A DNA stretch of 61,203 nucleotides, filler included, from a candidate division TA06 bacterium SM23_40 (lineage in GTDB: Bacteria > LJUI01 > SM1-40), in NCBI GenBank assembly GCA_001303705.1. It is 6 parts of 6 records of this genome, joined end to end, with 100 filler letters (N's around TTAATTAATTAA, not from the genome) between each part and the next. Parts side by side here need not be neighbours in the genome. Positions count along the whole stretch, not along the records: positions 38,556 to 45,573 come from LJUI01000135.1; 5 more parts are not named here. One strand, written 5' to 3'. Made by a program: the position numbers and the translations under genes. Below, piece by piece: positions 31,743-60,704 of the stretch (positions within the stretch are counted from its first letter, which is position 1; the number at the start of each line of letters is the position of its first letter). Under the pieces are notes generated by a model. The model was not told the DNA's origin. It saw only the letters and a list, made by a program, of their open reading frames with translations, and ran no database searches.

Positions 31743-34700
31743 TCAACTCACCAACCCATCGATCTTCGCACAAACCTGCACATCTGTCGTATGCTTCAGC
31801 TCGATCGCCTTCGCCGGACACTCACCCGAACACGTCCCACACCCCTGGCAGGCGGCGATCTCGATCACCGCCACACCGTCAACGATCCTCGGCACATCAT
31901 ACGGACACACGCGCAGACAGGTGAGACAGGCGGCACATCGATCCTCATCGACGACCGCGACCGCGCCCCCAACCGACAGCATATCGAGAGAGAGGATGCG
32001 CGACGCCCGCGAGGCAGCGGCACTCGCCTGGGCAAGAGCCTCAGATAGATATTTCGGATAGTGAGCGAGCCCGCAGAGGAACATCCCCTCGGAGGCGAAA
32101 TCGACCGGGCGGAGCTTCATATGCGCCTCGAGGAAGAAGCCGTCCGGGTTGAGAGAGACTTTCAACAGCTGCGCCAGCGCCTCATTCCGCGTATCGGGCA
32201 CGATGGCCGAAGAGAGAACAACCAGGTCCGGCTCGATCGTCACATCTGCCCCCAGCATCATCTCCTTCATCCTGACGACGAGCTTACCATTCTCACTCAC
32301 CTGGGGCTCGTCATCGTCCGCATATCGGAGAAAGATGACCCCCTTCTCCCGCGCTTCCCGATAGAACTTCTCCCGGAACCCGTACGACCTCATCTCGCGG
32401 TACAGAACATAGACAGCAATCTCCGGATTGAGCTCCTTCAGCTTGAGGGCGTTCTTGATCGCCTCTCCGCAGCAGATGCGGCTGCAATAGGGGCGTTCCT
32501 CATTACGCGAGCCCACACACTGGATCATCACCACTTCGCGCAGCCCTGATGGATCGAGACTGCCGTCTACGAGCTGCATCTCGAGCTCCTGTTGGGTGAG
32601 AACCCGCTCTGAAGTATCATGGAGGAAATGGCCGTCCCGCAGCTCCTGCCCTCCGGTGGCGACGATGATGACACCGCACTTCACCTCCTCCGGGCCCCCT
32701 GCCGGCTCACCTCCATTGCCTCCCTCTCCCCTCGGCCCGATCGTCACCGTGAAGTTCCCGACGAACCCGGTGAATCCCGTCACTTCCGAGCCCCGGTGGA
32801 CTGTGATCCTTTCTTCGGCCTCGACCTGGCCGCGAAGTGACCCGAGGAATGCCTGGGGATCTCCGCCATCCAGCAAGTAATGGAGATGCCGGAGATTCCC
32901 TCCCAGCTCATCCTCGCGCTCCACGAGATGCACGGGAAATCCCTGGCGGGCGAGATCGAGCGCGCTCACCATCCCCGCTGGGCCGCCGCCGATGACGAGC
33001 GCGGTCTTAGTCAACGGGATATCCTGCTTATACAGCGGCTCTAGATAGTGGGCCCGCGCCACCGCCATCCTGACGAGATCGCGCGCCTTCCCCGTCGCTC
33101 GCTCGTGCTCGTGAGGATGAACCCAGGAACACTGGTCGCGGATATTCGCCATCTCGAAGAAGTATGGATTGAGCCCCGCCTCCCGGATCGTATCCTGGAA
33201 CAGGGGCTCGTGCGTGCGCGGCGTACACGAGGCGACGATGACGCGATTCAGCTGGTGCTCTTCGATCGTCTGCTTGATGTGTTCGAGAGCATCCTGCGAA
33301 CAACTGTACAGATTGTGCTCGGCATGAGCTACGTCCGGGAGGGTGGCCGCCTCCTCGACAACCGCGGGGACATCAACCACACTACCGATGTTGCGACCAC
33401 AGTGGCAGATGAAGACGCCGATCCGCAGACCCTCCTTCGACACGTCCTTCTCCGGCGGATAGACCTTGGGCTCCACGCACGTGTTCCGCGCCGAGGCGAG
33501 AAGCCCCCCGACACGAGATGCGACACCGGATGCCTCGACGACCGTCTCCGGGATGTCCTTCGGCTCCACGAACGGACCGCAGACGTAGATGCCATCGCGA
33601 GTCGTGCTCAATGGATCGAAGGGATCGGTCCAGCAGAATCCGTGCTCGTTCAGACGCACCGACAGACGATCGGCCAGATCCTTGATATCGTCGCCGGGCA
33701 CCAACCCCCCGGACAGCACAACCATATTGAAGATGTCTGTGACGATCTCGCCCTGCTCGTTCTGGTAGCGAATCATCAGGTCCTTCGTCCCCGGCACCTC
33801 TTTTATCGAGGATGGGCGACACCGCGTATAGACGACACCGAGCTCCTTCGCCCGCTCGTAGTAGGCATCGAATCCCTTGCCGAATGCACGCAGGTCGATG
33901 AAGAATATCTGGCACGAAACATCTGGCTCATGCTCCATGGCGATGATCGCCTGTTTGGTCGCATACATGCAGCAGACCGACGAACAGTAATTGTGATCCG
34001 CCTCCCGTGAACCGACACACTGGATCCATGCGATCCGCTTCGGCAGCTCGCCATCTGACGGCCGGATGATCTTCCCCTGATAGGGCCCGCTTGCGCTGAG
34101 AATGCGCTCGAACTCGAGGCTGGAGACGACGTTTGCGTATCGCTTATGCCCGAACTCCCCGAGGGTATCGACATCGAACAGCTCGAACCCGGGAGCGAGG
34201 ATGACCGCACCTACGTCGAGCGTCTCCACCTTTTCCTCGTCCATGTCGTGAACGATCGCATTGGCCTCACAGGCGATTTCACACAGGCGGCAGTCCGAGC
34301 AGACCGCACAAGCAAGACAACGCGCTGCCTCGCGCCGCGCCTGCTCCTCGGTGAATGCCTGCTCGATCTCGCGGAAGTTGTCGATCCGTTCCGGCACCGG
34401 GAGCCTGGCAGGTTGCTCACGCGGGATCGACGGCGTCTGTTCTGTGATCCTCGCCTCTGCTGTCGGAACCTCACGCTTGGGAACCTCGATCTCTTCTCCC
34501 TGGAGGAAGCGGTCAATAGAGATCGCAGCGCGGTGCCCATCGGCGATCGCCTCGATGGCTGACGCCGGCCCCCGGACTGCATCGCCTCCTGCGAAGACAT
34601 CGGGAAGATTAGTCCTCTGGGTACCGGGATCGGCCTCGATGAGTCCCCGCCTGGTGACGGCGAGCCCTTCCTGCTCTACGAACGAGAGATCGCATGCCTG

Positions 34701-36257
34701 GCCTATGGCGACGATGACCGTGTCGCCGTAGATCTGCGCCTCGGTGTTCGGTTCGAGTGTCGGATTGAACCGGCCCTCCTCATCGAAGACCGAGCTGCAG
34801 ACCAGCGTCTCTATTCCTGTCACCTTCCCGTCCTCGCCCAACAGACGTTTGATGCCCAGGGATGGGTGGATCGTGAACTCCTCTTCGAGTGCCTCGTCGA
34901 CCTCCCACTCGTGGGCGGGCATCTCCTCGCGCGACTCGAGACAGATGATGTGGATATCCTCGCCGCCAACGCGTCGCGCGGTCTTGGCAACATCGATGGC
35001 GACATTACCGCCGCCTATCACGAGCACTTTCTTTCCAACCTTGACTGGTTTCCCGAGGCTGACATCGCGCAGGAAGGGAATACCGGGAAGGGCATCCTCG
35101 AGATCTTCGCCTTCAACGCGGAGCTGGCGGCTGAGATGTGCGCCGACGGCCACGAAGAAGGCACCATATCCCTGATCACGGAGATCGCCGAGAGTGAAGT
35201 CCGTACCCAGTCGCTTGCCCGATTTGATCTCTACACCGAGGCTCTCGATCAGGCCAACTTCAAGGTCGAGAACGTCCTTCGGCAAGCGATAGTCGGGGAG
35301 GCCTACTCTCAGCATCCCCCCGGGCTTCGGGAGCGCATCAAATACCGTTGTGCGATATCCGAGGCGGGCCAGGTAATTGGCGCAGGAGAGGCCGGCCGGG
35401 CCGGCGCCGATGATGGCGATGGACTTCTCCTGGGTCTTCTCAAGCGGCTCGGGGGGCTTGAAGTCCGGCGAGGCGTACACCGCATCGGTGAGGAAACGGC
35501 GGAGCTGCCGTATGGCTACCGGCTCGTCACATTCGCCGCGGCCGCACTCTTCCTCGCAGGGATGGTGGCAGATGCGTGCGGTGACGCCGGGAAGAGGGTT
35601 GGCCCGGTAGATCACCTGGAGGGCTTCCTCATATCGCCCTTCCGCGATGAGCGCGACATAACCCTGGACGCTCGTCTCGGCGGGGCAGTTGATCTTGCAC
35701 CTGGCATACCCGAGCTTATCTATGGAATATGCGTTGGGCACCGCCTGAGGATATCGGCGAAAGATGGCCTTGCGCCCGGTCAGACCGAGCTCGAACTCCG
35801 CCGGCACTTCGATCGGACATACCTTCTCGCACTCACCGCAGCCCGTGCACTGACGCAGATCGATGAACCGCGCGTAGCGACGGATCGTTGCCGCAAGACG
35901 CCCGGGCTCCCCCTCTACCCGCTCCAACTGTGCGTTAGTAATGACTTCAATGTTCGGATGCCTTCCCGTGCCCGATAGCCGGGGTGAGATCGTGCACATG
36001 GCACAGTCGTTCGTGGGGAAGGTCTTGTCCAGCTGCGCCATCTTCCCGCCGATACAGGGCTCCTTCTCCACGAGATAGACTTTGAATCCGGACTCGGCGA
36101 GATCGAGTGCGGCCTGCATCCCCCCGATGCCGCCACCCACAACCATCACCGCGCCGATCGTGCCGCCGTTACCGCCGGCGCCCGCCGTCGGATCGCCACC
36201 GTTCCCGCCAGACCCGTTGCCCCCCTCATGCTCCTTGCTGTGTGGATCTCCTATCAT
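31743..36257 (-). CDS. hdrA: HdrL-type multidomain heterodisulfide reductase A-like flavoprotein with inserted GltD-like NAD(P)H module
   Basis: VVGGGIGG, LDKTFPTNDCAMC, two QCVGSR..YCS..CC motifs, GVFICHCG, ASCTPRTHE, ANIRDQCSWVH, GltD-like ICHHPCEEEC / IIGAGPAG / IGGGNVA, ferredoxin motifs. Confidence 0.93.
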   Translation of the reverse strand: MIGDPHSKEHEGGNGSGGNGGDPTAGAGGNGGTIGAVMVVGGGIGGMQAALDLAESGFKVYLVEKEPCIGGKMAQLDKTFPTNDCAMCTISPRLSGTGRHPNIEVITNAQLERVEGEPGRLAATIRRYARFIDLRQCTGCGECEKVCPIEVPAEFELGLTGRKAIFRRYPQAVPNAYSIDKLGYARCKINCPAETSVQGYVALIAEGRYEEALQVIYRANPLPGVTARICHHPCEEECGRGECDEPVAIRQLRRFLTDAVYASPDFKPPEPLEKTQEKSIAIIGAGPAGLSCANYLARLGYRTTVFDALPKPGGMLRVGLPDYRLPKDVLDLEVGLIESLGVEIKSGKRLGTDFTLGDLRDQGYGAFFVAVGAHLSRQLRVEGEDLEDALPGIPFLRDVSLGKPVKVGKKVLVIGGGNVAIDVAKTARRVGGEDIHIICLESREEMPAHEWEVDEALEEEFTIHPSLGIKRLLGEDGKVTGIETLVCSSVFDEEGRFNPTLEPNTEAQIYGDTVIVAIGQACDLSFVEQEGLAVTRRGLIEADPGTQRTNLPDVFAGGDAVRGPASAIEAIADGHRAAISIDRFLQGEEIEVPKREVPTAEARITEQTPSIPREQPARLPVPERIDNFREIEQAFTEEQARREAARCLACAVCSDCRLCEIACEANAIVHDMDEEKVETLDVGAVILAPGFELFDVDTLGEFGHKRYANVVSSLEFERILSASGPYQGKIIRPSDGELPKRIAWIQCVGSREADHNYCSSVCCMYATKQAIIAMEHEPDVSCQIFFIDLRAFGKGFDAYYERAKELGVVYTRCRPSSIKEVPGTKDLMIRYQNEQGEIVTDIFNMVVLSGGLVPGDDIKDLADRLSVRLNEHGFCWTDPFDPLSTTRDGIYVCGPFVEPKDIPETVVEASGVASRVGGLLASARNTCVEPKVYPPEKDVSKEGLRIGVFICHCGRNIGSVVDVPAVVEEAATLPDVAHAEHNLYSCSQDALEHIKQTIEEHQLNRVIVASCTPRTHEPLFQDTIREAGLNPYFFEMANIRDQCSWVHPHEHERATGKARDLVRMAVARAHYLEPLYKQDIPLTKTALVIGGGPAGMVSALDLARQGFPVHLVEREDELGGNLRHLHYLLDGGDPQAFLGSLRGQVEAEERITVHRGSEVTGFTGFVGNFTVTIGPRGEGGNGGEPAGGPEEVKCGVIIVATGGQELRDGHFLHDTSERVLTQQELEMQLVDGSLDPSGLREVVMIQCVGSRNEERPYCSRICCGEAIKNALKLKELNPEIAVYVLYREMRSYGFREKFYREAREKGVIFLRYADDDEPQVSENGKLVVRMKEMMLGADVTIEPDLVVLSSAIVPDTRNEALAQLLKVSLNPDGFFLEAHMKLRPVDFASEGMFLCGLAHYPKYLSEALAQASAAASRASRILSLDMLSVGGAVAVVDEDRCAACLTCLRVCPYDVPRIVDGVAVIEIAACQGCGTCSGECPAKAIELKHTTDVQVCAKIDGLVS

Positions 36258-36354
36258 CTCCTACTCCCGGCTATCTTCGCTCTCGAGGCTTCTGAAGACG
36301 CCTCCAGATCACACGATGCTACAGCACCATCAGTGTTTCGTTGCCGACCGTAGA

Positions 36355-36910
36355 TCATCTCAGATGGATACCCTCTAAGTCACTGACAAGCTTGCGGAAT
36401 TCCTCATGCTTACCAATCCCGATCTTTTCATCCTCTACCCTCTCGAATTGCTTCAGTAGTTCTTCATGTCTCTCTACTGAAAGACGACCGTCTGCTATCG
36501 GGTTAAGGATGTTATCCTCCTCGTCAATCTGTTCAGTCAGTAGTGCAATGTGATTTTTTGCATTCTCAACGATTCTGACTGAAGCTCCACGATCCCCAGC
36601 CTCGTATGCGCCAATCGCCTCGCTCATCCCCTTGACGTAATCGCGTCCTATGTTGTGCTCGATAAGCATTACACCGATCGGCCACCTCACCTGGGCATCC
36701 CGCCCTCCTCCAACGCGCGGAAAAGGAGGTCCTCCTCCTTCCCGTGGTGACATCTATCCGCGAAGATCTCAATAAACTCGACCATTTGCTCAAGATGCTC
36801 CGGATTGGCCTCTTGTTGGGACTCGAACGTCTCGCAGACCTTCCCTAACACCCTTAGCATTAGCTTTGTCGCTTCATGTTCCTTTTTCAACTGCTCTGTT
36901 GGCCTTGTTC
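36355..36910 (-). pseudogene. Hemerythrin-domain protein pseudogene
   Basis: LKKEH...DRCHHGKEEDLLF in one frame and PIGVMLIEH...EEDNIL in another. TGA plus a 1-nt shift at ~36680-36690, no in-frame ATG at the expected start, and QIDEE where HIxKE is expected. Confidence 0.85.
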
Positions 36911-36987
36911 TGTTTCCCCCATTTCTACCGTACGGCGACTCCCCTACCTGAACCTACTTAGATGGTAGTCGCCATCCGACGGGCTCC

Positions 36988-38454
36988 CTACGCCGAGGGC
37001 GCCTCCACCACCTCCACCAGCTCACCCTTCAACGGCGAGACCCCCATCTCCGACAGCCTCGCCGCCATCTCATTCGCGATCTCGGCCAACTTCGGGCCCA
37101 TATTCGCCGCCAGATTGTGTATCTCGAGTCGATCCCCACGCACGCCTATCTGATCAAGCACCTCCTTCATGGCCGCGACGCGCTTGGACGCCCTCAGATT
37201 TCCGTGAAGGAACTTACAGTTGTCCTCATGGCAGGCGAAGACCAGAACGCCATCGGCGCCCTCCTCGAATGCACGAAGGATCAGACGAGTATCCACCTTC
37301 CCCGTGCAGGGAAGCCGTATGATCTCGAGTCCGGGAGGGAGAGCGAGCCTCATCGCTCCCGCCATGTCGAACGATTCATATCCGGAGTGCTCGCAGGCAA
37401 AGGCCACGATGCGAGGAGATGGCCAATCCGCATCGAACCGCGGATCCCAAGATAGGAGCGTATCGATCTGGTCATCGGTGAAGTTCCTCAACTGGATCGC
37501 TACAGCCGGGCACTCCGCAGCGCATATCCCGCACGCCTGACAGGCGAGCGGCGCGATCTCCGGCGCACGCGTGTACGTGATCGCCCAATGCGGGCAGTAG
37601 CGCTGGCAGGTGAGGCAGAGCGTGCATTTTCCTTTCGTCACCTCGGTGCGGTTGGTCGGTGCGGGCCGGCCGCCGCTGCCCAGCAGCTCTACGACCGAGG
37701 CCACGACACCTCGCGCCTCGGCCACAGCCTCATCCTCACTCTCGGGAACCCTCGAAGTGCCGACATTGAAGACTCCGACCCGGCGCGATGACGCGGGCAG
37801 AAGATAGACATTGTCCTCCTGCAGGAATCCGCCGGGCCCCATGTTGATGCGGAGCGATGATGCCAGGCTCTCGGTCTCGGGCCCCGGGTCGACTCTCTCC
37901 TCGAGCACAAGAAGGTCGGCCGGGATCCTGATCAAGGGCGGTTCCCGATCGGCCTGCCGCAGATAATCATCTATGACCTCGACCACCGGCGTGCCATTGT
38001 CCATGGACAGGCGCGGCGGCTCGTCGTCCGTGTAACGGAAGAAGATCACGCCCTCGTCGCGCAGCTCACCATATCGACGGGCAAGTCCTCTCCCGTGTAC
38101 CTCTACCTCATGCGAGATGATGTATACTTCGGCATTCTGTTCGCGGTGCAGGCGATGGGCGCTCGTCAGCGCAGACTCAAGGGCAAGCCTCGAATCCTGT
38201 CCCGCAAGCCCGAGGACGAAGCAGACGATACGCCGCTCCCCCTCCGATCCCTCCGACCACGGGAGCGAAGGTGCGCCCGGGGCCGCCGCGCCCGCGAGAG
38301 CCTCCTCCAGTTCGTACAGACCTACGACACGCCCACCATGCTCGACCCCATACTCCTCTCCTGCAAACCGTTTTTCGTCATCGGTTGCGACAACCACCGC
38401 ACCCACACATTCGTGCTTCACTCCGCGCTCATCTCTGATCCGGGCGTTGAAATT
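36988..38454 (-). CDS. Degenerate HdrA C-terminal region + 2x[4Fe-4S] + MvhD fusion (5' truncated)
   Basis: CTLCLTCQRYCP, CQACGICAAECP, MvhD motifs IVAFAC, LPCTGKV, GADGVLVFACHEDNC. Frame open to the contig edge. Confidence 0.88.
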   Translation of the reverse strand, partial: NFNARIRDERGVKHECVGAVVVATDDEKRFAGEEYGVEHGGRVVGLYELEEALAGAAAPGAPSLPWSEGSEGERRIVCFVLGLAGQDSRLALESALTSAHRLHREQNAEVYIISHEVEVHGRGLARRYGELRDEGVIFFRYTDDEPPRLSMDNGTPVVEVIDDYLRQADREPPLIRIPADLLVLEERVDPGPETESLASSLRINMGPGGFLQEDNVYLLPASSRRVGVFNVGTSRVPESEDEAVAEARGVVASVVELLGSGGRPAPTNRTEVTKGKCTLCLTCQRYCPHWAITYTRAPEIAPLACQACGICAAECPAVAIQLRNFTDDQIDTLLSWDPRFDADWPSPRIVAFACEHSGYESFDMAGAMRLALPPGLEIIRLPCTGKVDTRLILRAFEEGADGVLVFACHEDNCKFLHGNLRASKRVAAMKEVLDQIGVRGDRLEIHNLAANMGPKLAEIANEMAARLSEMGVSPLKGELVEVVEAPSA

Positions 38455-41039: not shown

Positions 41040-42440
41040 GTGAGTGGCGCGGGCCGGCGCTCGTCCTGTGGTATGGAGAGTGCGCGGACTGAGCAGGTTC
41101 TGGAGGATTTCGTGATCCGCCCGGTACGATCATTCAGTCTCGTTAGGTCTGCCCTCGGTGTCCTGCACCTGGTCGCCCTCCTCGCGTGCGTTGGCGCTGC
41201 AGACGCACGGATAGAGGGAGAGTTCCAGCTCAACACCTGGGTCGCGGGGGATCAGGAGCGGCCGGCGGTCGCCTCGCATCCGGCCGAGGGGTGGGTCGCG
41301 GTCTGGCAATCTGGTGAACAGGATGGCGACTGCTACGGCGTGTACGGAAGGCTCTTTGCCCCGGAGGGAGAGCCGGACGGAGAGGAATTCCGTGTCAATG
41401 TCGACACGATCGGATGCCAGATGTTTCCCCGCATTGATTCCGACCCGACAGGCAGGTTTGTCGTCGTCTGGCAATCGTGGGGGCAGGATGGTTCTGGATA
41501 CGGGATATTCGGGCGTCGCTTCGATGATGAGGGCACCCCTCTCGGGCCGCCGTTTCAGATCAACATCTGGACTGCCGGCAACCAGGAGCGACCGGCGGTT
41601 GCGACACAGAGTGATGGCTCGTTCCTCGTAGTCTGGCAGTCTTCCGCACAGGATGGATCGAGCTATGGGGTGTACGGGCAGGAATTCGATGAGGAGGGCA
41701 ACCCGACGGGCGAGGAGTTCGGTGTCAATGTGGAGACCGAGGGGTGGCAGGGCAATCCCGATCTGGCCATCGGGCCTGCGGGGACATGGGTTGTTGTCTG
41801 GGAATCGGAGAACGGCGACGGCAATGGGTTCGGTATCCTGGCCAGGCGCTTCGGAGCCGCGGGCATTCCGCTCGGCCCTGAGATCGCAGTCAACGAGCAC
41901 CTCATCAATGATCAGATCCTCCCCGCTGCGGGCGTCGATAGCCAGGGCAACCTCATCGTCGTCTGGTCGTCGGAGGATCAGGATGGCCATCGGTTCGGCG
42001 TCTATGCGAGGCGGTTCTCGTCCGAGTTGGTGCCCCTGGGCGAAGAATTCCAAGTGAATACCTACACCTACAAGGATCAGATGGGCCCGAGCGTGGCCGT
42101 GACCCCTGATGGGCAGTTCGCAGTCCTCTGGATGTCATCGTTTCAGGACGGGAGCGGTCTGGGAGTATTCGGTCAGGTCTATCTGGCCAACGGGCAGCCG
42201 TTGGGAAGCGAGTTCCAGGTGAACGAGTATACCGATCTCTATCAGTCATTCCCCCGGGCGGCGTGCGATACAGGATGTCTGGTCATCGTCTGGCAGTCCG
42301 ATGTTCAGGACGGGGACGGGTACGGTATCTGGGCTCGTGCTTACCAGATGGCCGAGCTGGGTGGGGACAGTGAGAGGATCGCGCGGCCGCACGGAGCGCA
42401 ACATGCCGGGACGGGATCGAATCTGCCCGCGAAGGAATAG
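41040..42440 (+). CDS. Secreted seven-repeat (EFQVN-type) probable beta-propeller protein; start uncertain
   Basis: Seven ~57-aa repeats G.EF.VN....Q..P.VA....G.FVVVWQS..QDG...GVY; hydrophobic signal ending GAADA. Confidence 0.85.
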   Translation: MSGAGRRSSCGMESARTEQVLEDFVIRPVRSFSLVRSALGVLHLVALLACVGAADARIEGEFQLNTWVAGDQERPAVASHPAEGWVAVWQSGEQDGDCYGVYGRLFAPEGEPDGEEFRVNVDTIGCQMFPRIDSDPTGRFVVVWQSWGQDGSGYGIFGRRFDDEGTPLGPPFQINIWTAGNQERPAVATQSDGSFLVVWQSSAQDGSSYGVYGQEFDEEGNPTGEEFGVNVETEGWQGNPDLAIGPAGTWVVVWESENGDGNGFGILARRFGAAGIPLGPEIAVNEHLINDQILPAAGVDSQGNLIVVWSSEDQDGHRFGVYARRFSSELVPLGEEFQVNTYTYKDQMGPSVAVTPDGQFAVLWMSSFQDGSGLGVFGQVYLANGQPLGSEFQVNEYTDLYQSFPRAACDTGCLVIVWQSDVQDGDGYGIWARAYQMAELGGDSERIARPHGAQHAGTGSNLPAKE

Positions 42441-42454
42441 ACGTGAGGAGAGCG

Positions 42455-43516
42455 ATGCTAAGATTGGTCCTTATCCTGCTCACCTGCTTGCTGACAGCCC
42501 CTGCCGTCTGCTGCGCACAGTCGGTCTTCATCTGGAAGATGGAGACCGAGTCAATCGTCGATCCGGACGGCGGCGGGTCGGTGCAGCAAGATTATGCTGT
42601 GAAGCGTGCACTCGACGAGCTGGAGCTCGTCTATGAGGTGGGTAGAGATCTCCCGGAAGATCTGTCGCCGTACCGGGTCATCTTCGTCCTCATGGGATGG
42701 TGGTGCTGAGGCGGGGGCGGAGCTACGATTGCTCCGGAGGAGCAATTGCGATTGACCTCGTTCCTCGACGATGGCTGCGGCCTGTACATCGAGGGGAATG
42801 ACTTCGGCATGCACCATCACGCGTGTTCGCTGTACGGGTACTTCGGCTGCGCATATCTCGGCGATGGCAACAACTACTACAACGTCGCCCGCCTCGACGG
42901 TCAGGCCGGGAGCCTGGCAGAGGGTATGGTCTTTCACATGCTCTATGGTCAGGAGCCCGACATATTTCCCGACGAAATAGGCAATGCCGGCGGCGCTCTG
43001 TTGTTCTTGTCTCAGGACGGCATCGGCCGCGGCGTGCAGCACAGTCCTCTGGGGTATGAGTATCGGGCGATCCACCTCACCGTGCCCTTCGGCGCCCTTA
43101 TCGACGAGGAGTCCACCAAGTCTCAGCTCATGGCTCGATATGTCGACTTCCTCTGGAGCACAATCCACGTCGGGGTGGACCCGGATACGACGCTCATCCC
43201 CCAGGGCGGGATTCTCGAGTACGACTGGTCTCTGGTGAACAACTCCGGTGTGCCTCAGTCGGTCTGGGCACGATCCCGCGTGAGGCTCCCCGGGGGGACG
43301 GTCCTTCCCCTCCTCGGGCCGGTTCCGGTCACCCTCGGGCCCGGGCAGCAGGTGAGCGGACACCGGGTGCACGGGGTCCCGGCAAACGCGCCGATCGGTG
43401 AGTATGTGTACATCGTCGAAGTCGGTGTGCCGCCCGACAGCCTCATCGACCAGGCCAGATTCGCGTTCAGCGTGGAGAGCGGGATGAGAGTGGATGGCGC
43501 TTCTGGTTCCGACTGA
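42455..43516 (+). CDS. Putative secreted selenoprotein (in-frame UGA at 42707-42709) with shared C-terminal domain
   Basis: ORFs 42443-42709 and 42746-43516 are in the same frame, separated only by one TGA. Read-through gives ...IFVLMGWWC-U-GGGGATIAPEEQLRLTSFLDDG. A hairpin follows the TGA. Confidence 0.75.
42726..42748 (+). promoter_or_regulatory. Candidate bacterial SECIS element
   Basis: CGATTGCTCC-GGA-GGAGCAATTG, a 10-bp stem with one G-U pair. The loop starts with G, and 26 nt separate it from the UGA. Confidence 0.6.
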
Positions 43517-43694
43517 TCGAGCGCGAGGGCGCGTTACAGACGTCGCATTTGATAGTACGCGATGCAGCTTCCCGGCATCGCCTTGTCGGGGGCGGGGCGT
43601 GCGAGCTCGGGGGAGTTGACCAGTACACGGACCTCCTGGAGGGGAGGGTATGCTCCTCCCACGCGGAGGAGCGACAGCGGAAGGGAGGCGGAAC

Positions 43695-44789
43695 ATGAAG
43701 TGGGCAGTGGCGATAGCGTGTGCGGCTCTGATCCTTGCGCAGGCCGCATCCGGAACCATCATCCGCGTTCCGGAAGACTACTCGACGATTCAGGCCGGGA
43801 TCAACGCGGCCTCGTTCGGGGATACGGTCCTGGTCGGGCCAGGGCTGTATGAGGAGACGATAACTCTTGCCTACGGGGTGTACGTGACGAGCGAATACGG
43901 ACCTGCCTACACGGAGATCACCGCACACGGTCATATCATAACCGGAGCGGACAGCAGCGTGTTCGAGGGTTTCCGCGTCACCAACGACGGCCTGGGGACC
44001 AGCTGGGGGTACGGGTGGTCTGAGTCGACTACGATCATCCGCCGCAATGTCTTCATCGGCCACTACGTGGGCCTTCACTGCGGGCAGACGGGAAGTGCGG
44101 AGACGATCGTCAACAATGTGATAACCGATAATGCGCATAGCGGTATCACGTTCGGATGGGATGCGGCGCCGATTATCGAGAACAACATCGTCTACGACAA
44201 CAATGCTGGCCTACATCACTACGGTACGGGATACGCGCCGACGATCGACTACAACGACGTCTGGAACAACGTCACTAACTACAGCAACGTGACGCCCGGC
44301 CCCAACGACATCAGCGCCGATCCGAATTTCCTCAACACGGCCAAGCGAGACTGGAGGCTCCTCTGGCCTTCTCCCTGCATCGATGCGGGCAATCCGGCTA
44401 CACACTATAACGATCCGGATGGGACGAGGAATGACATCGGCGCGTACTACTTTCATCAGGGAGGGCCGGCCGCGATCTACCTCACTCCGGATACGACGAC
44501 CGTCGCGAGGGGGGGCTCACTGGGGGTGACCTACACTGCGATCAACCCAAGTCCGACGCAGCCCCTGTCGTTCTACGCGAAGACAGAGGCGACGCTCCCG
44601 AACGGTAATCCCTTCCCGGTCTTCCTGAAACAGGCGGGTCTCGGTCCGGGGGAGACGAAGCAGGTGTACATAACGCACACGGTCCCCATGGCGGCTCCGC
44701 TCGGGCTCTATCTGTACACCACCTATATCGGGGTGCCGCCCAACACGCTGTGGGACACGGATGTCTTCCCATTCAGCGTAGAGCCGTAG
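43695..44789 (+). CDS. Secreted beta-helix protein with shared C-terminal domain
   Basis: Signal peptide, VPEDYSTIQAGINAA, NNVI..N repeats, SPCIDAG, C-terminal HTVPMAAPLGLYLY...DTDVFPFSVEP. Confidence 0.9.
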   Translation: MKWAVAIACAALILAQAASGTIIRVPEDYSTIQAGINAASFGDTVLVGPGLYEETITLAYGVYVTSEYGPAYTEITAHGHIITGADSSVFEGFRVTNDGLGTSWGYGWSESTTIIRRNVFIGHYVGLHCGQTGSAETIVNNVITDNAHSGITFGWDAAPIIENNIVYDNNAGLHHYGTGYAPTIDYNDVWNNVTNYSNVTPGPNDISADPNFLNTAKRDWRLLWPSPCIDAGNPATHYNDPDGTRNDIGAYYFHQGGPAAIYLTPDTTTVARGGSLGVTYTAINPSPTQPLSFYAKTEATLPNGNPFPVFLKQAGLGPGETKQVYITHTVPMAAPLGLYLYTTYIGVPPNTLWDTDVFPFSVEP

Positions 44790-56606: not shown

Positions 56607-57055
56607 CACTTCCCCCGCCTGAATTGCATGGGTTCAAGTCGCGGGATCTTCTGCTGCTCCGGAGGTGGCGGGGCTGGCTCGGGTGGCGGTCGCTTGGCGG
56701 GCTTCGCCGGTCGCTTCTCGCCGCGAAGCGTGTTCAGCACCTTGGGTCGTGGCCGGCGGGCGCGGGTCTCGGCAAGCTGGCGCTCGAGCTGCTCTGCCTT
56801 GGCCTGGAGTGCTCCGGCGCTGATCCCGGCCTGGTGACCCTGAAAGAAGATCATCCGTCGGGCGAGCTTCTCGAGCTTCTCGGACTGAGCGTTGATCACG
56901 GCTTCCTGCTTGGCTACCCGCTCGCTGAGCTGCTCAAGCATCCGGTCAACCGCGCCCTCCGCGCTGTCGCCCTTCGAATAGCCCATGGCTGCGGCGATCG
57001 CCGCGACCGCGATCACCGTGTTCCTGATGCCCTCGACGAGCTTGCGCGTGTCCAT
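56606..57055 (-). CDS. Phage hypothetical protein (hydrophobic N-terminal helix, coiled coil, Pro-rich tail)
   Basis: TGATG overlap with the gpF-like gene, VIAVAAIAAAMG segment, PPPEPAPPPP. Confidence 0.7.
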   Translation of the reverse strand: MDTRKLVEGIRNTVIAVAAIAAAMGYSKGDSAEGAVDRMLEQLSERVAKQEAVINAQSEKLEKLARRMIFFQGHQAGISAGALQAKAEQLERQLAETRARRPRPKVLNTLRGEKRPAKPAKRPPPEPAPPPPEQQKIPRLEPMQFRRGK

Positions 57056-57954
57056 CAGCGTTTTCTCCCCTCCTGGACCAAGACTACCGTGCATCGACAA
57101 TTGGGGTGACTTGGCGGCGCATCGATCTTCTGCCCGTCTCCCGTCGTGAAGGGCTCTCCGATCGGCCTCTGCTGCCCTTGCATCGGAGCACAGATCTCCT
57201 CGCTCACTCGATCATCGCCCGCGGTCAGCCACTCCTGAACGTATCCTTCAGGAAAGGCATCTTCGTCTTTGAGCTGCTGCCAGAGCTGTGCTCGCCCCTG
57301 TGAGACAGCAGAGATGCTCTCGGTTCTTGCGATGGTCCGGGCCCGTTGGCCGATCAAGCGTTCTGAATATTTCTGGGCGCGCTGCTCGATTTTGGCGTAG
57401 GGCACGCCCTCCTTTTGAAGCTGGCCCCAGTAGCGAGACACCGCTGTGCCCTGTCGTTCCGTGAGCCCGAGAGAGCGCCGGATGTCTTTCGCGATCTGCC
57501 CTGGGTGTCTTCCCCTGGTGATTCCGTCCCGCAGCGTGTTGCTGATGGCTGCTCTGGATGTGTCGCTCAGTTGTTTGGCAAGTTCTAGCAGGTGATCATC
57601 AACCCATTTCCGAACAGCGGGGCGCATGGGATCCAGCACGACGATCTTTCCCATCTCTTTTGCTGCAAGTCGCCCGCCGGAGACGAGGCCCTTGTTCAGC
57701 TCTTCGCTTAGCCCGCTGGCGATGGCCTCGATGCCTCCCCCGTTGGTCTTGCGCCAGACGTCCTCGACGGTCGCTGTGTCAAGCATCTTAGCCAATTCGC
57801 CGATCGGAACTCGATCCCGGAGGGAAAGAAGAGCCTTTTTGACGTGCTTGGCAATCTCTCCCTCAACGCGGGCCGCTGCGCCGAAAACGGCTCTTTGCTT
57901 CGGGATCAGGCGTTTCTCCAGCGGGACAAGCGCCGGATGGGCGACAAACGGCAT
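57055..57954 (-). CDS. Phage minor head protein (Mu gpF/SPP1 gp7 family)
   Basis: RARTIARTE, W.TAGDDRV...C, PPSHPNCRC. Confidence 0.9.
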   Translation of the reverse strand: MPFVAHPALVPLEKRLIPKQRAVFGAAARVEGEIAKHVKKALLSLRDRVPIGELAKMLDTATVEDVWRKTNGGGIEAIASGLSEELNKGLVSGGRLAAKEMGKIVVLDPMRPAVRKWVDDHLLELAKQLSDTSRAAISNTLRDGITRGRHPGQIAKDIRRSLGLTERQGTAVSRYWGQLQKEGVPYAKIEQRAQKYSERLIGQRARTIARTESISAVSQGRAQLWQQLKDEDAFPEGYVQEWLTAGDDRVSEEICAPMQGQQRPIGEPFTTGDGQKIDAPPSHPNCRCTVVLVQEGRKR

Positions 57955-59262
57955 CTATTCCTTCTCTGGCTCCGGCAGGCTGGCTACCCTCCTCAGATGT
58001 CGCTCAAGCTTGTCATCTGGGAACAGCTCGGCGCCAGCTCCAGCAATCGCGGTGATGTAGGCCCCCAGCTCGGCCAGGTCCGGACTCTCGATGTCTCCGT
58101 GGACAAGGTTTGGATATGGGGCGGACCGTCCGTTGATCTCCATCAGGCGCGGAATCGCGTCCCTGTTGAATGTTTCGGCAATGGTGTCACACCATGCCCC
58201 GAGAGCGGTGGCGAAGATCTCGGTTTTCGAGCTGGCAAGAGCGAAGCTTCCGACTTTCTCGTGACCGAGCAGAATGAAGTCGGCGAGCACCGTCATCGCG
58301 ATTCGCTGGTCATACCGCGTCAGGATTTTCGACGTATCGAATTGCTTGGTACCCGCGCTGGAGAGCAGTTTGAGATCATAGAGCAGGTTGCCCCCATCAT
58401 CATAGACCGCAGGAAAGACCACACCGACCTGGCTGTCCATTCTGATGTTCCGGACGATCTTCTGGATCTCTGCGAGAAGGGCTTTCTCTCGCGCACCAGC
58501 TCCATCGTAGAGCAGCTCAACCGGCACCGTGGCGAAGGGGATCCCGCAGATATCGCGCTCGACTCCGATTGCTTCGAACTCCTCGATCCGCTTCTTGAAC
58601 CACCACGGTCGGTATGCTCCGCGGAGAACCGAACGCCCTTCGGGATTCCCACGTCGACACGTCGTGCGAAAGTTGATGAACTTTTCGGCTGGGATGGTGA
58701 CCTCATGAAAATCCGGGGGGGCGACCTGCACCACTGCCAGGGTGTCTCCCCCCTCTCCGAATTCCCAGCGATCGATGGTGTCCTGGGCACGAATGGGGAG
58801 CCTGCGCCAACCGATCTTCCCGTCGTCGTGCTGTGAGGAAATCTTCGCTGACATGCCGCGACGGACTTTGTAGACCAGTTCATGAAGCGAGAATCCGAAG
58901 GGAAGCATTGTCAGGATCTCGCTGACGATTTCGGTGAAGGGGGTGTCCATGTCCCAGAGGCAGGATTCCAGAAACTCCGCATCCCCGACGTGCTCTTTTT
59001 CGGTGCCGGCTGGTTCCACGTCCCATGAGACCTGGCGAATGAGCATCTCGATCGCGAACAGCATCGAGGAGACGACCGGATCATTCTCAGACATCTCACG
59101 GAATGCCTTGAGCCCCCGATCTCCCTTGAGGGATTGTAGGAATTCCTCGTCAAGACGTCCGCTATATTGCTTCAGCCCGGTCTTCCCGAGCTCACGAGAC
59201 AGGTTGGCGTTGAGCCGGCTCACTCCCGCTCCGGTGTCCTCTTGTTTCTTTTTTCGCGGCAT
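57955..59262 (-). CDS. Phage portal protein (DUF935-like)
   Basis: Position right after terL, 435 aa, ELG.TGL....G...EEF, GNPEGRSVLR.AY.PW, RYD..IA..VLA.F. Confidence 0.85.
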   Translation of the reverse strand: MPRKKKQEDTGAGVSRLNANLSRELGKTGLKQYSGRLDEEFLQSLKGDRGLKAFREMSENDPVVSSMLFAIEMLIRQVSWDVEPAGTEKEHVGDAEFLESCLWDMDTPFTEIVSEILTMLPFGFSLHELVYKVRRGMSAKISSQHDDGKIGWRRLPIRAQDTIDRWEFGEGGDTLAVVQVAPPDFHEVTIPAEKFINFRTTCRRGNPEGRSVLRGAYRPWWFKKRIEEFEAIGVERDICGIPFATVPVELLYDGAGAREKALLAEIQKIVRNIRMDSQVGVVFPAVYDDGGNLLYDLKLLSSAGTKQFDTSKILTRYDQRIAMTVLADFILLGHEKVGSFALASSKTEIFATALGAWCDTIAETFNRDAIPRLMEINGRSAPYPNLVHGDIESPDLAELGAYITAIAGAGAELFPDDKLERHLRRVASLPEPEKE

Positions 59263-59279
59263 ATTCGCCTCTGGGTGGG

Positions 59280-60704
59280 TTAAGAGACGGTACTAAAGGG
59301 GCTCGCGCCGGTCAAGTCCGGGAGCTTGATATCACCCATCGCCGCAGCCCTGCTGTCATCCAGATCGGATAGTGCCTGACTCATGGCATCCACCTGGTCA
59401 TCATTCGCAGAGGACGGGAAGGTTGTCACCTCGTCGATGAATTCGGCAACCCATGGGTAAAGCTTCGGATTCGGGATCCAGACATTGCCTGACTCCCAGA
59501 GCGGGGCAACGGCCTGCGCCCTTGCTTCCTTACTGCCCTTGGGGTTCACCGCAATCAATCCGGGGATCTGAGATTTCAGTGCGGAAATGATTGCCGGTCC
59601 ATTCGCCTTGTCTTCGACAAGCTTTCTTCGCGCCTCGGGCCACCGCTGAGAAAGCGGAGGGATCGCGTGAAGGGTTGCGACAAAATCAAGGCGATCTCGT
59701 CGCTGATCGAGCAGATAGTAGTTTCCGCTCACTGCACCCCAGATCTGGCCCACCACGAAGCTCGAAGAGTCAGCGTCTTTGAAGCTCATATCCCAGCTCT
59801 GGATTATTCTGTCAAATCGATCTGGCAGAGCATCCCAGTAGCGAAGCCACTCCTCCTTGAAAATCGTTCCTTCCGCTGGCCGCGGGCGTTGTTGGAACAT
59901 CCCGGCCCAGACCCGTTCGCCCACCGCCTTGCGCCGAAGCATCAGTTCCTTCTCGCTGAATCGGTGCTCGCAAAGCGGAGCTCCGATCTTGCGCCCAAGG
60001 GGATCGTTGTCTTCTGCTATCGCCGGAAGCTTGATTAGCTTCCACGGGTCAGAGTGCTCTTTGAGAAGCCAACCCGCGAGGTCAGCCTGGTGCCAGCGAG
60101 TTTGGATTAGGATCATCGTCGCGTTCTCTTGGGCGCGGGTGTAGAACGTGGACTGGAACCACTCGAGAACCCTGCGCCGGTAGGTGACCGATTGCGCCTG
60201 TTCCCAGTTCTTGAAGGGATCGTCGATGATCATCAGATGGCCGGGATAGCCAGTGATCGCGCCCCCGACGCCTGCAGCGATGAGCCCGCCCCCATGGGCC
60301 GTGTACCAGCGGCTTGCGGCTCGCACGTCCTGGCGGGCCTTCGTCAGCAGCTGTTGTCGGCTGGAGAAGGTGTCTCGAATTTTTCTTCCCCAGTGAGCCG
60401 CAAGCTTTGCTTCATGCGAGGTGATGATGACCCAGTGCTCCGGAAACGCCTCGAGGTACCAGGTGGGAAGCCAGTGAGAGAGCAGGGAGCTCTTTCCGTG
60501 CTGCGGTGGCATGTTGATGATCCACCGGCCGCGGTCGAGCCCGCCAGCGAGTTGCTCGGAAATGTAGACCAGATGATCGAACGGCCACCACATCTTACGG
60601 GAAAGATGATGTGCAAATCCGTGGAGGGTGACGCGCCAGTCCTGCGGGCTACGCCGCCGAACCGTTCCCGCTTCCGGTCTTGCTCGCTGTCTTTTTCTTG
60701 CCAC
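59280..60704 (-). CDS. Phage terminase large subunit
   Basis: MPPQHGKS Walker A, IIDDP Walker B, QTRWH..DL.G, QQRP, SWD, VEDKANG, DDQVDA. Confidence 0.95.
   Translation of the reverse strand: MARKRQRARPEAGTVRRRSPQDWRVTLHGFAHHLSRKMWWPFDHLVYISEQLAGGLDRGRWIINMPPQHGKSSLLSHWLPTWYLEAFPEHWVIITSHEAKLAAHWGRKIRDTFSSRQQLLTKARQDVRAASRWYTAHGGGLIAAGVGGAITGYPGHLMIIDDPFKNWEQAQSVTYRRRVLEWFQSTFYTRAQENATMILIQTRWHQADLAGWLLKEHSDPWKLIKLPAIAEDNDPLGRKIGAPLCEHRFSEKELMLRRKAVGERVWAGMFQQRPRPAEGTIFKEEWLRYWDALPDRFDRIIQSWDMSFKDADSSSFVVGQIWGAVSGNYYLLDQRRDRLDFVATLHAIPPLSQRWPEARRKLVEDKANGPAIISALKSQIPGLIAVNPKGSKEARAQAVAPLWESGNVWIPNPKLYPWVAEFIDEVTTFPSSANDDQVDAMSQALSDLDDSRAAAMGDIKLPDLTGASPFSTVS

Follow-up and report, generated by a model that had tools for sequence, protein, structure and literature searches.

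Mammalian thioredoxin reductase carries a C-terminal Gly-Cys-Sec-Gly redox centre, with cysteine next to selenocysteine (Sec, U). The same Cys-Sec (C-U) dipeptide is known in the bacterial selenoproteins SaoL, SaoB, SaoC, HgcA and MbdU and in a CopZ-like form, all included in Table 1 of a 2026 inventory (PMC13188914) that gives 119 prokaryotic selenoprotein families or subfamilies with model identifiers. Amidotransferases are represented in that table by the PyrG-related NF004836 family alone, no selenocysteine is recorded for the fold families of 2gk3, 3rht, GH42, ThuA or IFT52, and no cargo of the type IX secretion system (T9SS) is found among the 119 families. Here we describe a gene (42455-43516, plus strand) located in a 61,203-nucleotide stretch of DNA from candidate division TA06 bacterium SM23_40 (assembly GCA_001303705.1; six joined parts, hereafter the window), which, judging from its sequence, is very probably a genuine selenocysteine gene encoding an exported protein. 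The family to which it belongs is absent from Table 1 of PMC13188914, in which families with only cd or PTHR models were set apart by their names alone, and the window protein gave 0 matches to Pfam and NCBIfam at E≤1. This is in line with the preliminary description of the locus, where no described selenoprotein family was recognised.

The frame begins with the ATG at 42455 and contains a single internal TGA (42707-42709, codon 85). The features of the gene are the following:

42446-42450, plus strand: Shine-Dalgarno-like AGGAG, 4 nt 5' of the ATG, read directly from the sequence.
42455-43516, plus strand: candidate full-length coding sequence of a selenoprotein, 353 codons followed by the terminal TGA; codon 85 is the putative Sec.
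42455-42517, plus strand: predicted signal peptide, amino acids (aa) 1-21, MLRLVLILLTCLLTAPAVCCA, a hydrophobic signal-like N-terminus read from the sequence.
42518-43162, plus strand: predicted GATase1-like (glutamine-amidotransferase-like) alpha/beta domain, aa 22-236, which spans the TGA (model, VIA-align and Foldseek).
42704-42709, plus strand: Cys84 (TGC, 42704-42706) and putative Sec85 (TGA, 42707-42709), a vicinal C-U motif; frame read directly.
42726-42748, plus strand: hairpin resembling a selenocysteine insertion sequence (SECIS), 10 bp with a GGA apical loop, separated from the UGA by a 16-nt spacer (local hairpin search).
43163-43477, plus strand: predicted C-terminal beta-sandwich, aa 237-341 (model; immunoglobulin-like matches, Z 12-14).
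43514-43516, plus strand: terminal TGA, read as stop; the best hairpin 3' of it has 4 bp and is not SECIS-like.

With translation table 11 this region yields two open reading frames (ORFs), 42443/42455-42709 (88/84 aa) and the TTG-started 42746-43516 (256 aa), and the databases store these pieces separately. The preliminary description had proposed that gene callers split one frame, interrupted by a single TGA right after a Cys codon, into an upstream part with the ribosome-binding site and signal peptide and a downstream part starting at a TTG. All of these elements were recovered when the 353-codon frame was read again, including the AGGAG sequence and the signal-like N-terminus. TGA is an ordinary stop in the window, where it ends 8 of the 25 genes; therefore there is no global recoding, and an alternative genetic code was ruled out. 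Inspection by eye of the window ORFs obtained with TGA read as U provided no other convincing TGA-interrupted gene. Together with the comparative evidence given below, the identification of the internal UGA at codon 85 as a selenocysteine codon is strongly supported.

The read-through protein was used as query for an exhaustive HMMER search, which retrieved 1169 representatives at E≤1e-3, of which 161 reached E≤1e-10. Of the top 150, about 53 (hand count) begin to match at query residues 90-131, shortly past the TGA and no more than 10 residues from their own N-terminus. Inspection of these sequences revealed that their start codons differ and are arbitrary, which indicates that the gene calls were truncated at the stop. 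Full-length representatives span the site, and two of them read C-x-G-C there. The closest named relatives are 245-248-aa "hypothetical proteins" from metagenome-assembled genomes (MAGs) of candidate division TA06, and members of the family carry the public names "hypothetical protein", "large repetitive protein" or "T9SS type A sorting domain-containing protein". Besides the piece from the window itself, a word-indexed protein search returned a single truncated relative (74% identical), and no match was confirmed in a single-protein scan of genome contigs.

A profile made from a 4-sequence alignment (A4) was used to search for loci at the DNA level. The four loci obtained from named MAGs (one from Phycisphaerales, one from Cloacimonadota and two from a Calditrichota MAG) all showed an in-frame TGA at the homologous position. 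All fetched loci from the window, Phycisphaerales, Cloacimonadota and Calditrichota were realigned by script, which gave 49 distinct homologous domains with DNA; exactly one TGA was present at the same column in 47 of them and TGC (Cys) in the other 2, with conserved residues flanking this column on both sides. Even for entries stored in the databases only as the truncated downstream piece, the DNA shows a continuous frame. Close homologues thus have TGA or Cys at this position, and neither of two outcomes that the preliminary description had named, among others, as fatal to its proposal (Trp, Arg or Gly at this column, or homologues encoded as two separate proteins) was observed in them.

Wider sampling gave the same picture. 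Among the site-spanning matches listed from a profile search of 232 Cloacimonadota species genomes, 95 had one TGA and 11 had none (hand count). In 79 Calditrichota genomes, 27 of 27 strong site-spanning matches contained one TGA, and weaker matches (E 1e-13 to 1e-31) within very large proteins had no TGA. Within 401 sampled Planctomycetota genomes the family was found, with the query used, only in one Phycisphaerales genome (G001), in two copies, both with the TGA; a second genome matched the C-terminal domain alone. The number of Sec copies per genome ranged from 1 to 4 in five genomes examined. The usual motif of the family is L-G-x-x-C-x-x-U-G (C-x-x-U), occasionally with C-x-x-C, whereas the window protein and the two Phycisphaerales copies have C-U-G in a loop two residues shorter. 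The Cys-Sec motif initially noted therefore holds for these three sequences, and C-x-x-U is the norm of the family. These data strongly support that the gene belongs to a large family present in Cloacimonadota, Calditrichota, TA06-like bacteria and one Phycisphaerales genome, which seems to have escaped notice because gene calling breaks its members at the Sec codon.

According to bSECISearch-type criteria, a bacterial SECIS is a stem-loop located just 3' of the UGA, with its apical loop about 16-37 nt away and a G early in the loop. In the window gene the hairpin at 42726-42748 (CGATTGCTCC-GGA-GGAGCAATTG) has 10 contiguous pairs and its GGA loop begins 26 nt after the UGA; it is the hairpin that had been reported, with the same number of pairs, in the preliminary description. 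The competing hairpin mentioned there is also visible, as a weaker pairing of GGAGC (42719-42723) with GCTCC (42731-42735). Under loose criteria, SECIS-like hairpins of at least 9 pairs occur after 202 of 13391 codon positions (1.5%) in the 25 window genes. The best such hairpins after the terminal TGA of this gene and after eight other window TGA stops have 1-6 pairs, and the hairpin at TGA 42707-42709 is the longest after any of the 10 window TGAs examined. An Rfam scan of the window gave no match at gathering thresholds.

The relatives show the same arrangement. A hairpin of at least 5 bp, with a G early in the loop and 16-37 nt downstream, was present at 41 of the 47 UGA sites, which are related by descent, versus 37.5% of 10290 other codons of the same genes; for hairpins of at least 6 bp the values were 33 of 47 and 20.8%. 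In Cloacimonadota the hairpin has 4-6 bp, starts 15 nt after the UGA and bears an apical loop GUN. In 31 Cloacimonadota sequences, 72.6% of the cells of this helix were paired (62.5% in shuffles) and double-change cells amounted to 22 versus 7.8 ± 2.0 in shuffled alignments, a value reached by 0 of 500 shuffles. The covariation score of the same sequences was 0.341, versus 0.156 in shuffles and at most 0.214 in slid controls, and RNAalifold on its own predicted the central 4 pairs. An RNA-level constraint is indicated, because in the covarying columns the third base of a Gly codon pairs with the first base of a codon nearby. Six Cloacimonadota loci (L015, L018, L020, L025, L027 and L034) have, in place of the usual GUN-loop hairpin, GGCUC-GGUC-GAGC(U), which is closed by a GGUC tetraloop and shifted some 9 nt in the 3' direction, to about 26-38 nt from the UGA. 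Two SECIS registers occur, hence, within one family. In L007 (4020-4066, minus strand), a Cloacimonadota gene of the Cys form (TGC), the hairpin GGTGC-GGTCG-GCACC still occupies the SECIS position; it may be a fossil SECIS left after a recent Sec-to-Cys change.

The structure of the read-through protein was predicted with AlphaFold2 from a 57-row alignment (predicted local distance difference test, pLDDT, 89.6). In this model a helix (aa 2-13) precedes the first strand (aa 23-28), and the mature protein would start at this first beta-strand, as in relatives. A single alpha/beta domain, built with strands from both sides of the TGA, covers aa 22-236; in it, strand 73-79 is followed by a 14-residue loop (aa 80-93) that bears the C-U pair and leads into helix 94-105. 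The best VIA-align matches to aa 22-236 were 2gk3_A (Z 16.8), GH42 domain B (Z 16.6) and 3rht_A (Z 16.5), true glutamine amidotransferases scored Z ~12-13 over aa 20-236, and Foldseek agreed on a GATase1-like fold (E 1e-8 to 1e-10). The GATase1-type flavodoxin-like alpha/beta sheet, which is the fold criterion of the class I glutamine amidotransferase superfamily, is present in the model. The Cys that is invariant among Sec-form members sits near the elbow position (alignment A7), and the model strongly supports that the C-U pair, at the C-terminal edge of the central sheet, occupies the topological position of the amidotransferase nucleophile elbow. Alignments A1, A2, A6 and A7 contain no invariant or nearly invariant His; therefore these alignments do not support a hydrolytic triad. 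A thioredoxin-fold CxxC/CxxU oxidoreductase was also considered and rejected, since the fold is GATase1-like and the motif is found in loop aa 80-93, ahead of the helix that begins at aa 94.

The C-terminal domain of the window protein shows 38% identity over 102 aa (E 1e-18) to the C-terminus of the beta-helix protein encoded at 43650-44789. The beta-sandwich of about 105 aa is common to 43163-43477 and to 44481-44786 of this neighbouring NosD-like gene, and further matches to it occur at the very C-terminal ends of dozens of proteins that differ greatly in length. The earlier proposal of one coherent alpha/beta domain followed by a shared C-terminal domain agrees with this identity and with the pLDDT of the model. 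Signal-peptide-like N-termini were found in all relatives examined whose N-terminus lay within the fetched DNA, and the T9SS sorting domain (TIGR04183 / PF18962) scored over the cut-off at the C-terminus of 5 of the 7 relatives scanned, whereas neither the window protein nor the Phycisphaerales relative matched these two models. The beta-sandwich may be a lineage-specific sorting or anchor domain that replaces the T9SS sorting domain of the relatives. Pfam and NCBIfam gave no match in the Sec domain of the 7 relatives, the only matches being in their C-terminal or middle domains.

Like the PyrG-related NF004836 family, the predicted window protein combines a fold of the class I glutamine amidotransferase type with a Sec that follows a central strand, close to the place of the nucleophile elbow. 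Unlike that family, which has a different motif and is listed without export domains, the window protein has C-U and its relatives C-x-x-U, a signal peptide and sorting-type C-terminal domains are present, and the window protein has no NCBIfam match. The fold is closest to GATase1-like non-catalytic domains, namely STM3548 (2gk3, Z 16.8), a Planctomyces GATase1-like protein (3rht, Z 16.5), GH42 beta-galactosidase domain B (Z 16.6), ThuA-like proteins (Z 14.5) and the IFT52 GIFT domain (Z 14.7). These five domains align over 177-212 residues at only 10-15% identity and no Pfam model is matched, and a common fold need not mean a common function. As in thioredoxin reductase, a vicinal Cys-Sec is followed by Gly (W-C-U-G here) and could form a selenylsulfide; however, the motif of the reductase is at the flexible C-terminus of a flavoenzyme, whereas here it is internal to an exported non-flavin domain. 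The window protein shares with SaoL, SaoB, SaoC, HgcA and MbdU the Cys-Sec dipeptide and the typical database truncation at C-U, and SaoB is likewise exported, but the folds and families are unrelated (no NCBIfam match) and the genomic context is another. The C-U dipeptide itself is not new, because it is known in these proteins. The parallel drawn in the preliminary description with thioredoxin reductase is hence valid for the dipeptide, with bacterial C-U selenoproteins as additional precedents, and does not extend to the fold, which is not thioredoxin-like. Finally, T9SS type A cargo resembles the family through the signal peptide and the sorting domain of 5 of 7 relatives, and differs from the window protein and the Phycisphaerales relative, which lack this domain and both end in another beta-sandwich domain.

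From these data a mechanism can be proposed. The hairpin located 16 nt further on (42726-42748) would recruit SelB with Sec-tRNA(Sec), the UGA of codon 85 would be read as Sec, and translation would stop at the second TGA, which lacks such a hairpin. The product, in which a GATase1-like alpha/beta domain (aa 22-236) precedes a beta-sandwich (aa 237-341), would undergo Sec-dependent export (Sec here denoting the secretion pathway) and be displayed outside the cytoplasm, where the Cys/Sec pair could cycle between the selenol/thiol and selenylsulfide states. Its target might be an extracellular disulfide, polysulfide or similar oxidant, or the pair might chelate soft metals or metalloids. The function would accordingly be that of a selenylsulfide redox centre or of a soft-metal site outside the cytoplasm.

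The second of these functions, in which the Cys/Sec pair of a surface protein is a site for soft metals or metalloids (Hg, As, Cu, Se) and not a redox centre, is a possible but less probable reading. The C-U pairs of SaoL, SaoB, SaoC, HgcA, MbdU and the CopZ-like form (PMC13188914, Table 1) speak for it, as does the metal-interacting interpretation given to C-U selenoproteins in the part of Haft and Gwadz (10.1101/2022.07.06.499078) that was consulted. Also consistent with a metal site are the location of the motif in a flexible loop, and not at a helix N-terminus as in thioredoxin-fold CxxC proteins, and the conserved acidic residues E113, D169 and D173. On the other hand, most members have C-x-x-U, a pattern tied to redox motifs in the consulted part of PMC13188914, and no metal-resistance or transport gene adjoins the gene at the window locus or at either of the two Phycisphaerales loci examined.

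Insertion of Sec at the UGA requires the Sec machinery, which was searched for in relatives. The Phycisphaerales and Calditrichota genomes yielded SelA, SelB, SelD and tRNA-Sec (76 and 71 bits), each over the cut-off, and one SelD copy in the relatives' genomes itself carries a TGA. SelA was also present in 10 of 10 further Cloacimonadota genomes (5 of 5 carriers of the Sec form and 5 of 5 carriers of the Cys form), and therefore SelA does not discriminate between the two forms. Read-through of the UGA without Sec (e.g. by a near-cognate Trp or Cys tRNA) in an organism devoid of the machinery would fit the fact that this evidence comes from relatives and the presence of a GGA loop without the GU of most of them, but it is highly unlikely. 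SelA and SelD were found in 3 of 3 relatives' genomes searched, with all four components in 2 of 3, in addition to SelA in the 10 further genomes; the hairpin lies at the correct distance and is the longest after the 10 window TGAs examined; and when the machinery is lost, Sec is normally replaced by Cys, as seen in L006 and L007. Selenocysteine insertion is thus the reading that we prefer.

Part or all of the stretch was detected in 13 public runs from 12 studies of marine sediment, seawater and estuary metagenomes. Contigs of three studies (X1, X3 and X5), one of which may be the window's own source, cover the TGA and keep it, with no difference among those listed; the preliminary description had called for a verification of the TGA in reads. 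A variant strain (X7, ~92-97% identical) shows, among the differences listed, 13 synonymous changes out of 16 in-frame differences (4/6 upstream and 9/10 downstream of the TGA), which indicates that both halves are under purifying selection in this frame. Right after 43516 the changes become dense and non-periodic and an insertion appears, and therefore the second TGA is a real stop. A metagenome scan returned only the same sequence, L001, which is not independent because its gene is identical to that of the window; L001 and the window do not match base for base at one fixed offset over 13 kb (4507 mismatches).

These results bear on the two weakest explanations. That the TGA is a nonsense mutation, a pseudogene lesion or a sequencing or assembly error in an ordinary Cys- or Trp-containing gene is extremely unlikely, since, although 440 N and another, apparently frameshifted small gene in the window show that local errors do occur, the TGA is present at the same column in 47 of 49 homologous domains from three phyla and in the contigs of three studies, the variant differences are mostly synonymous on both sides, and a 10-bp hairpin lies 3' of it. 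It is equally hard to accept that the locus encodes two proteins, an 84-aa exported peptide and a 256-aa cytoplasmic protein starting at TTG 42746, as gene callers and databases would have it (an 81/84-aa cluster and "hypothetical proteins" of 256 and 245-248 aa), because the downstream calls begin at different arbitrary codons in different relatives, the sheet of the predicted single alpha/beta domain needs strands of both pieces, the Cys-form relatives are continuous proteins, and the signal peptide is only in the upstream piece while the sorting-type C-terminal domains are on the downstream one.

Several observations weigh against the selenoprotein assignment or soften the evidence for it. 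The evidence for the machinery comes from relatives of the window's organism, the tRNA scan of the window found none, and in the 2.5-Mb Cloacimonadota MAG (G002), which has SelA and SelD, SelB and tRNA-Sec were below the cut-off. The GGA loop of the window hairpin does not contain the GU of most relatives. Whole-segment folding was not significant alone (z = -1.67 for the window and 0.28 to -1.14 for four relatives), and local hairpin statistics and covariation were used instead because these z-scores were weak. Since the UGA sites share descent, the hairpin enrichment and shuffle tests overstate independence. More distant homologues have neither Cys nor Sec in the loop (e.g. FYPYN-GSL), so the motif is not essential for the fold, and no conserved His/Glu triad was seen. 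Regarding the metagenomes, X1, X3 or X5 may be the origin of the window itself, and a short X7 contig over the TGA, with 6 of 12 differences listed, is not decisive for the codon.

The literature was also searched. The consulted parts of PMC13188914, PMC12013277 (deep-Sep), PMC13326102 (BSepDB), PMC5029168 and PMC9312934 make no mention of Cloacimonadota, Calditrichota or secreted forms; for BSepDB this covers the main text. No link was found in the literature searched between selenoproteins or selenocysteine and Cloacimonadota (including the names Cloacimonas, Cloacamonas, Cloacimonetes and WWE1), and one paper was retrieved for selenocysteine and type IX secretion, apparently unrelated judging by its listing. 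The exported selenoprotein family is large and apparently undescribed. We propose, tentatively and with less confidence than the assignment of the gene itself, that it might be the first recognised type IX-secreted cell-surface selenoprotein family, with extracellular C-x-x-U/C-U domains on an amidotransferase-like scaffold, 1-4 copies per genome and selenol chemistry outside the cell.

The selenocysteine gene starts 14 nt beyond the stop of the upstream gene (41040-42440, plus strand), which encodes about 7-8 tandem repeats of ~55 aa (…VVWQS..QDGSGYG[IV]FGRRF…). This gene had no Pfam match and only a weak NCBIfam match ("PDIAV motif lipoprotein"); its product is probably a secreted beta-propeller-like protein of the same operon. 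The genes next to the Phycisphaerales copies encode an FG-GAP protein, a kinase-TPR protein and a HEAT-repeat protein and are unrelated to those that flank the window gene, and therefore the gene context gives no functional lead. The valyl-tRNA synthetase of the window is 54% identical to those of Cloacimonadota and Calditrichota and 48% to that of Phycisphaerales, from which the host is probably another lineage near these phyla.

Elsewhere in the window, a small hemerythrin-like gene (36319-36890, minus strand) seems to be split over two frames, one ending in ...HHGKEEDLLFRALEEGGMPR at a TGA and the other continuing as ...GVMLIEHNIGRDYVKGM...; this appears to be a frameshift, a pseudogene or an assembly error. 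The region 31743-38421 (minus strand) encodes a 1504-aa HdrA-like flavoprotein/ferredoxin fusion and an MvhD (FlpD)-domain protein, both in frames without internal TGA; the HdrA-like and MvhD families include selenoproteins in some organisms. Mu-like phage genes (Mu F, portal and large terminase) occupy 57055-60704 (minus strand) at the window end, which indicates that a prophage or phage remnant borders the region. The 440 N are distributed in runs from ~7845 to ~54624, one of them near 45.6 kb.

Selenoprotein genes are systematically mis-called, and in this family well over 100 genes from species-representative genomes of at least three phyla are stored in truncated form as "hypothetical" or "T9SS sorting domain" proteins. 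Recognising the family would correct those annotations and would enlarge the selenoproteomes of Cloacimonadota and Calditrichota, which are important as fermenters and syntrophs of digesters and sediments. The ~47 natural SECIS examples, in two registers, would be a useful training set for predictors. The family also adds to a fold that is listed only once for selenocysteine in the 2026 inventory (PyrG-related), and it points to selenium-dependent chemistry at the cell exterior. If the proposal is correct, a missing block would be added to the selenoproteomes of uncultured phyla, consisting of proteins widespread in Cloacimonadota, Calditrichota and TA06-like bacteria of anoxic sediments and digesters, which would, for example, reduce extracellular disulfides or polysulfides or capture metals and metalloids.

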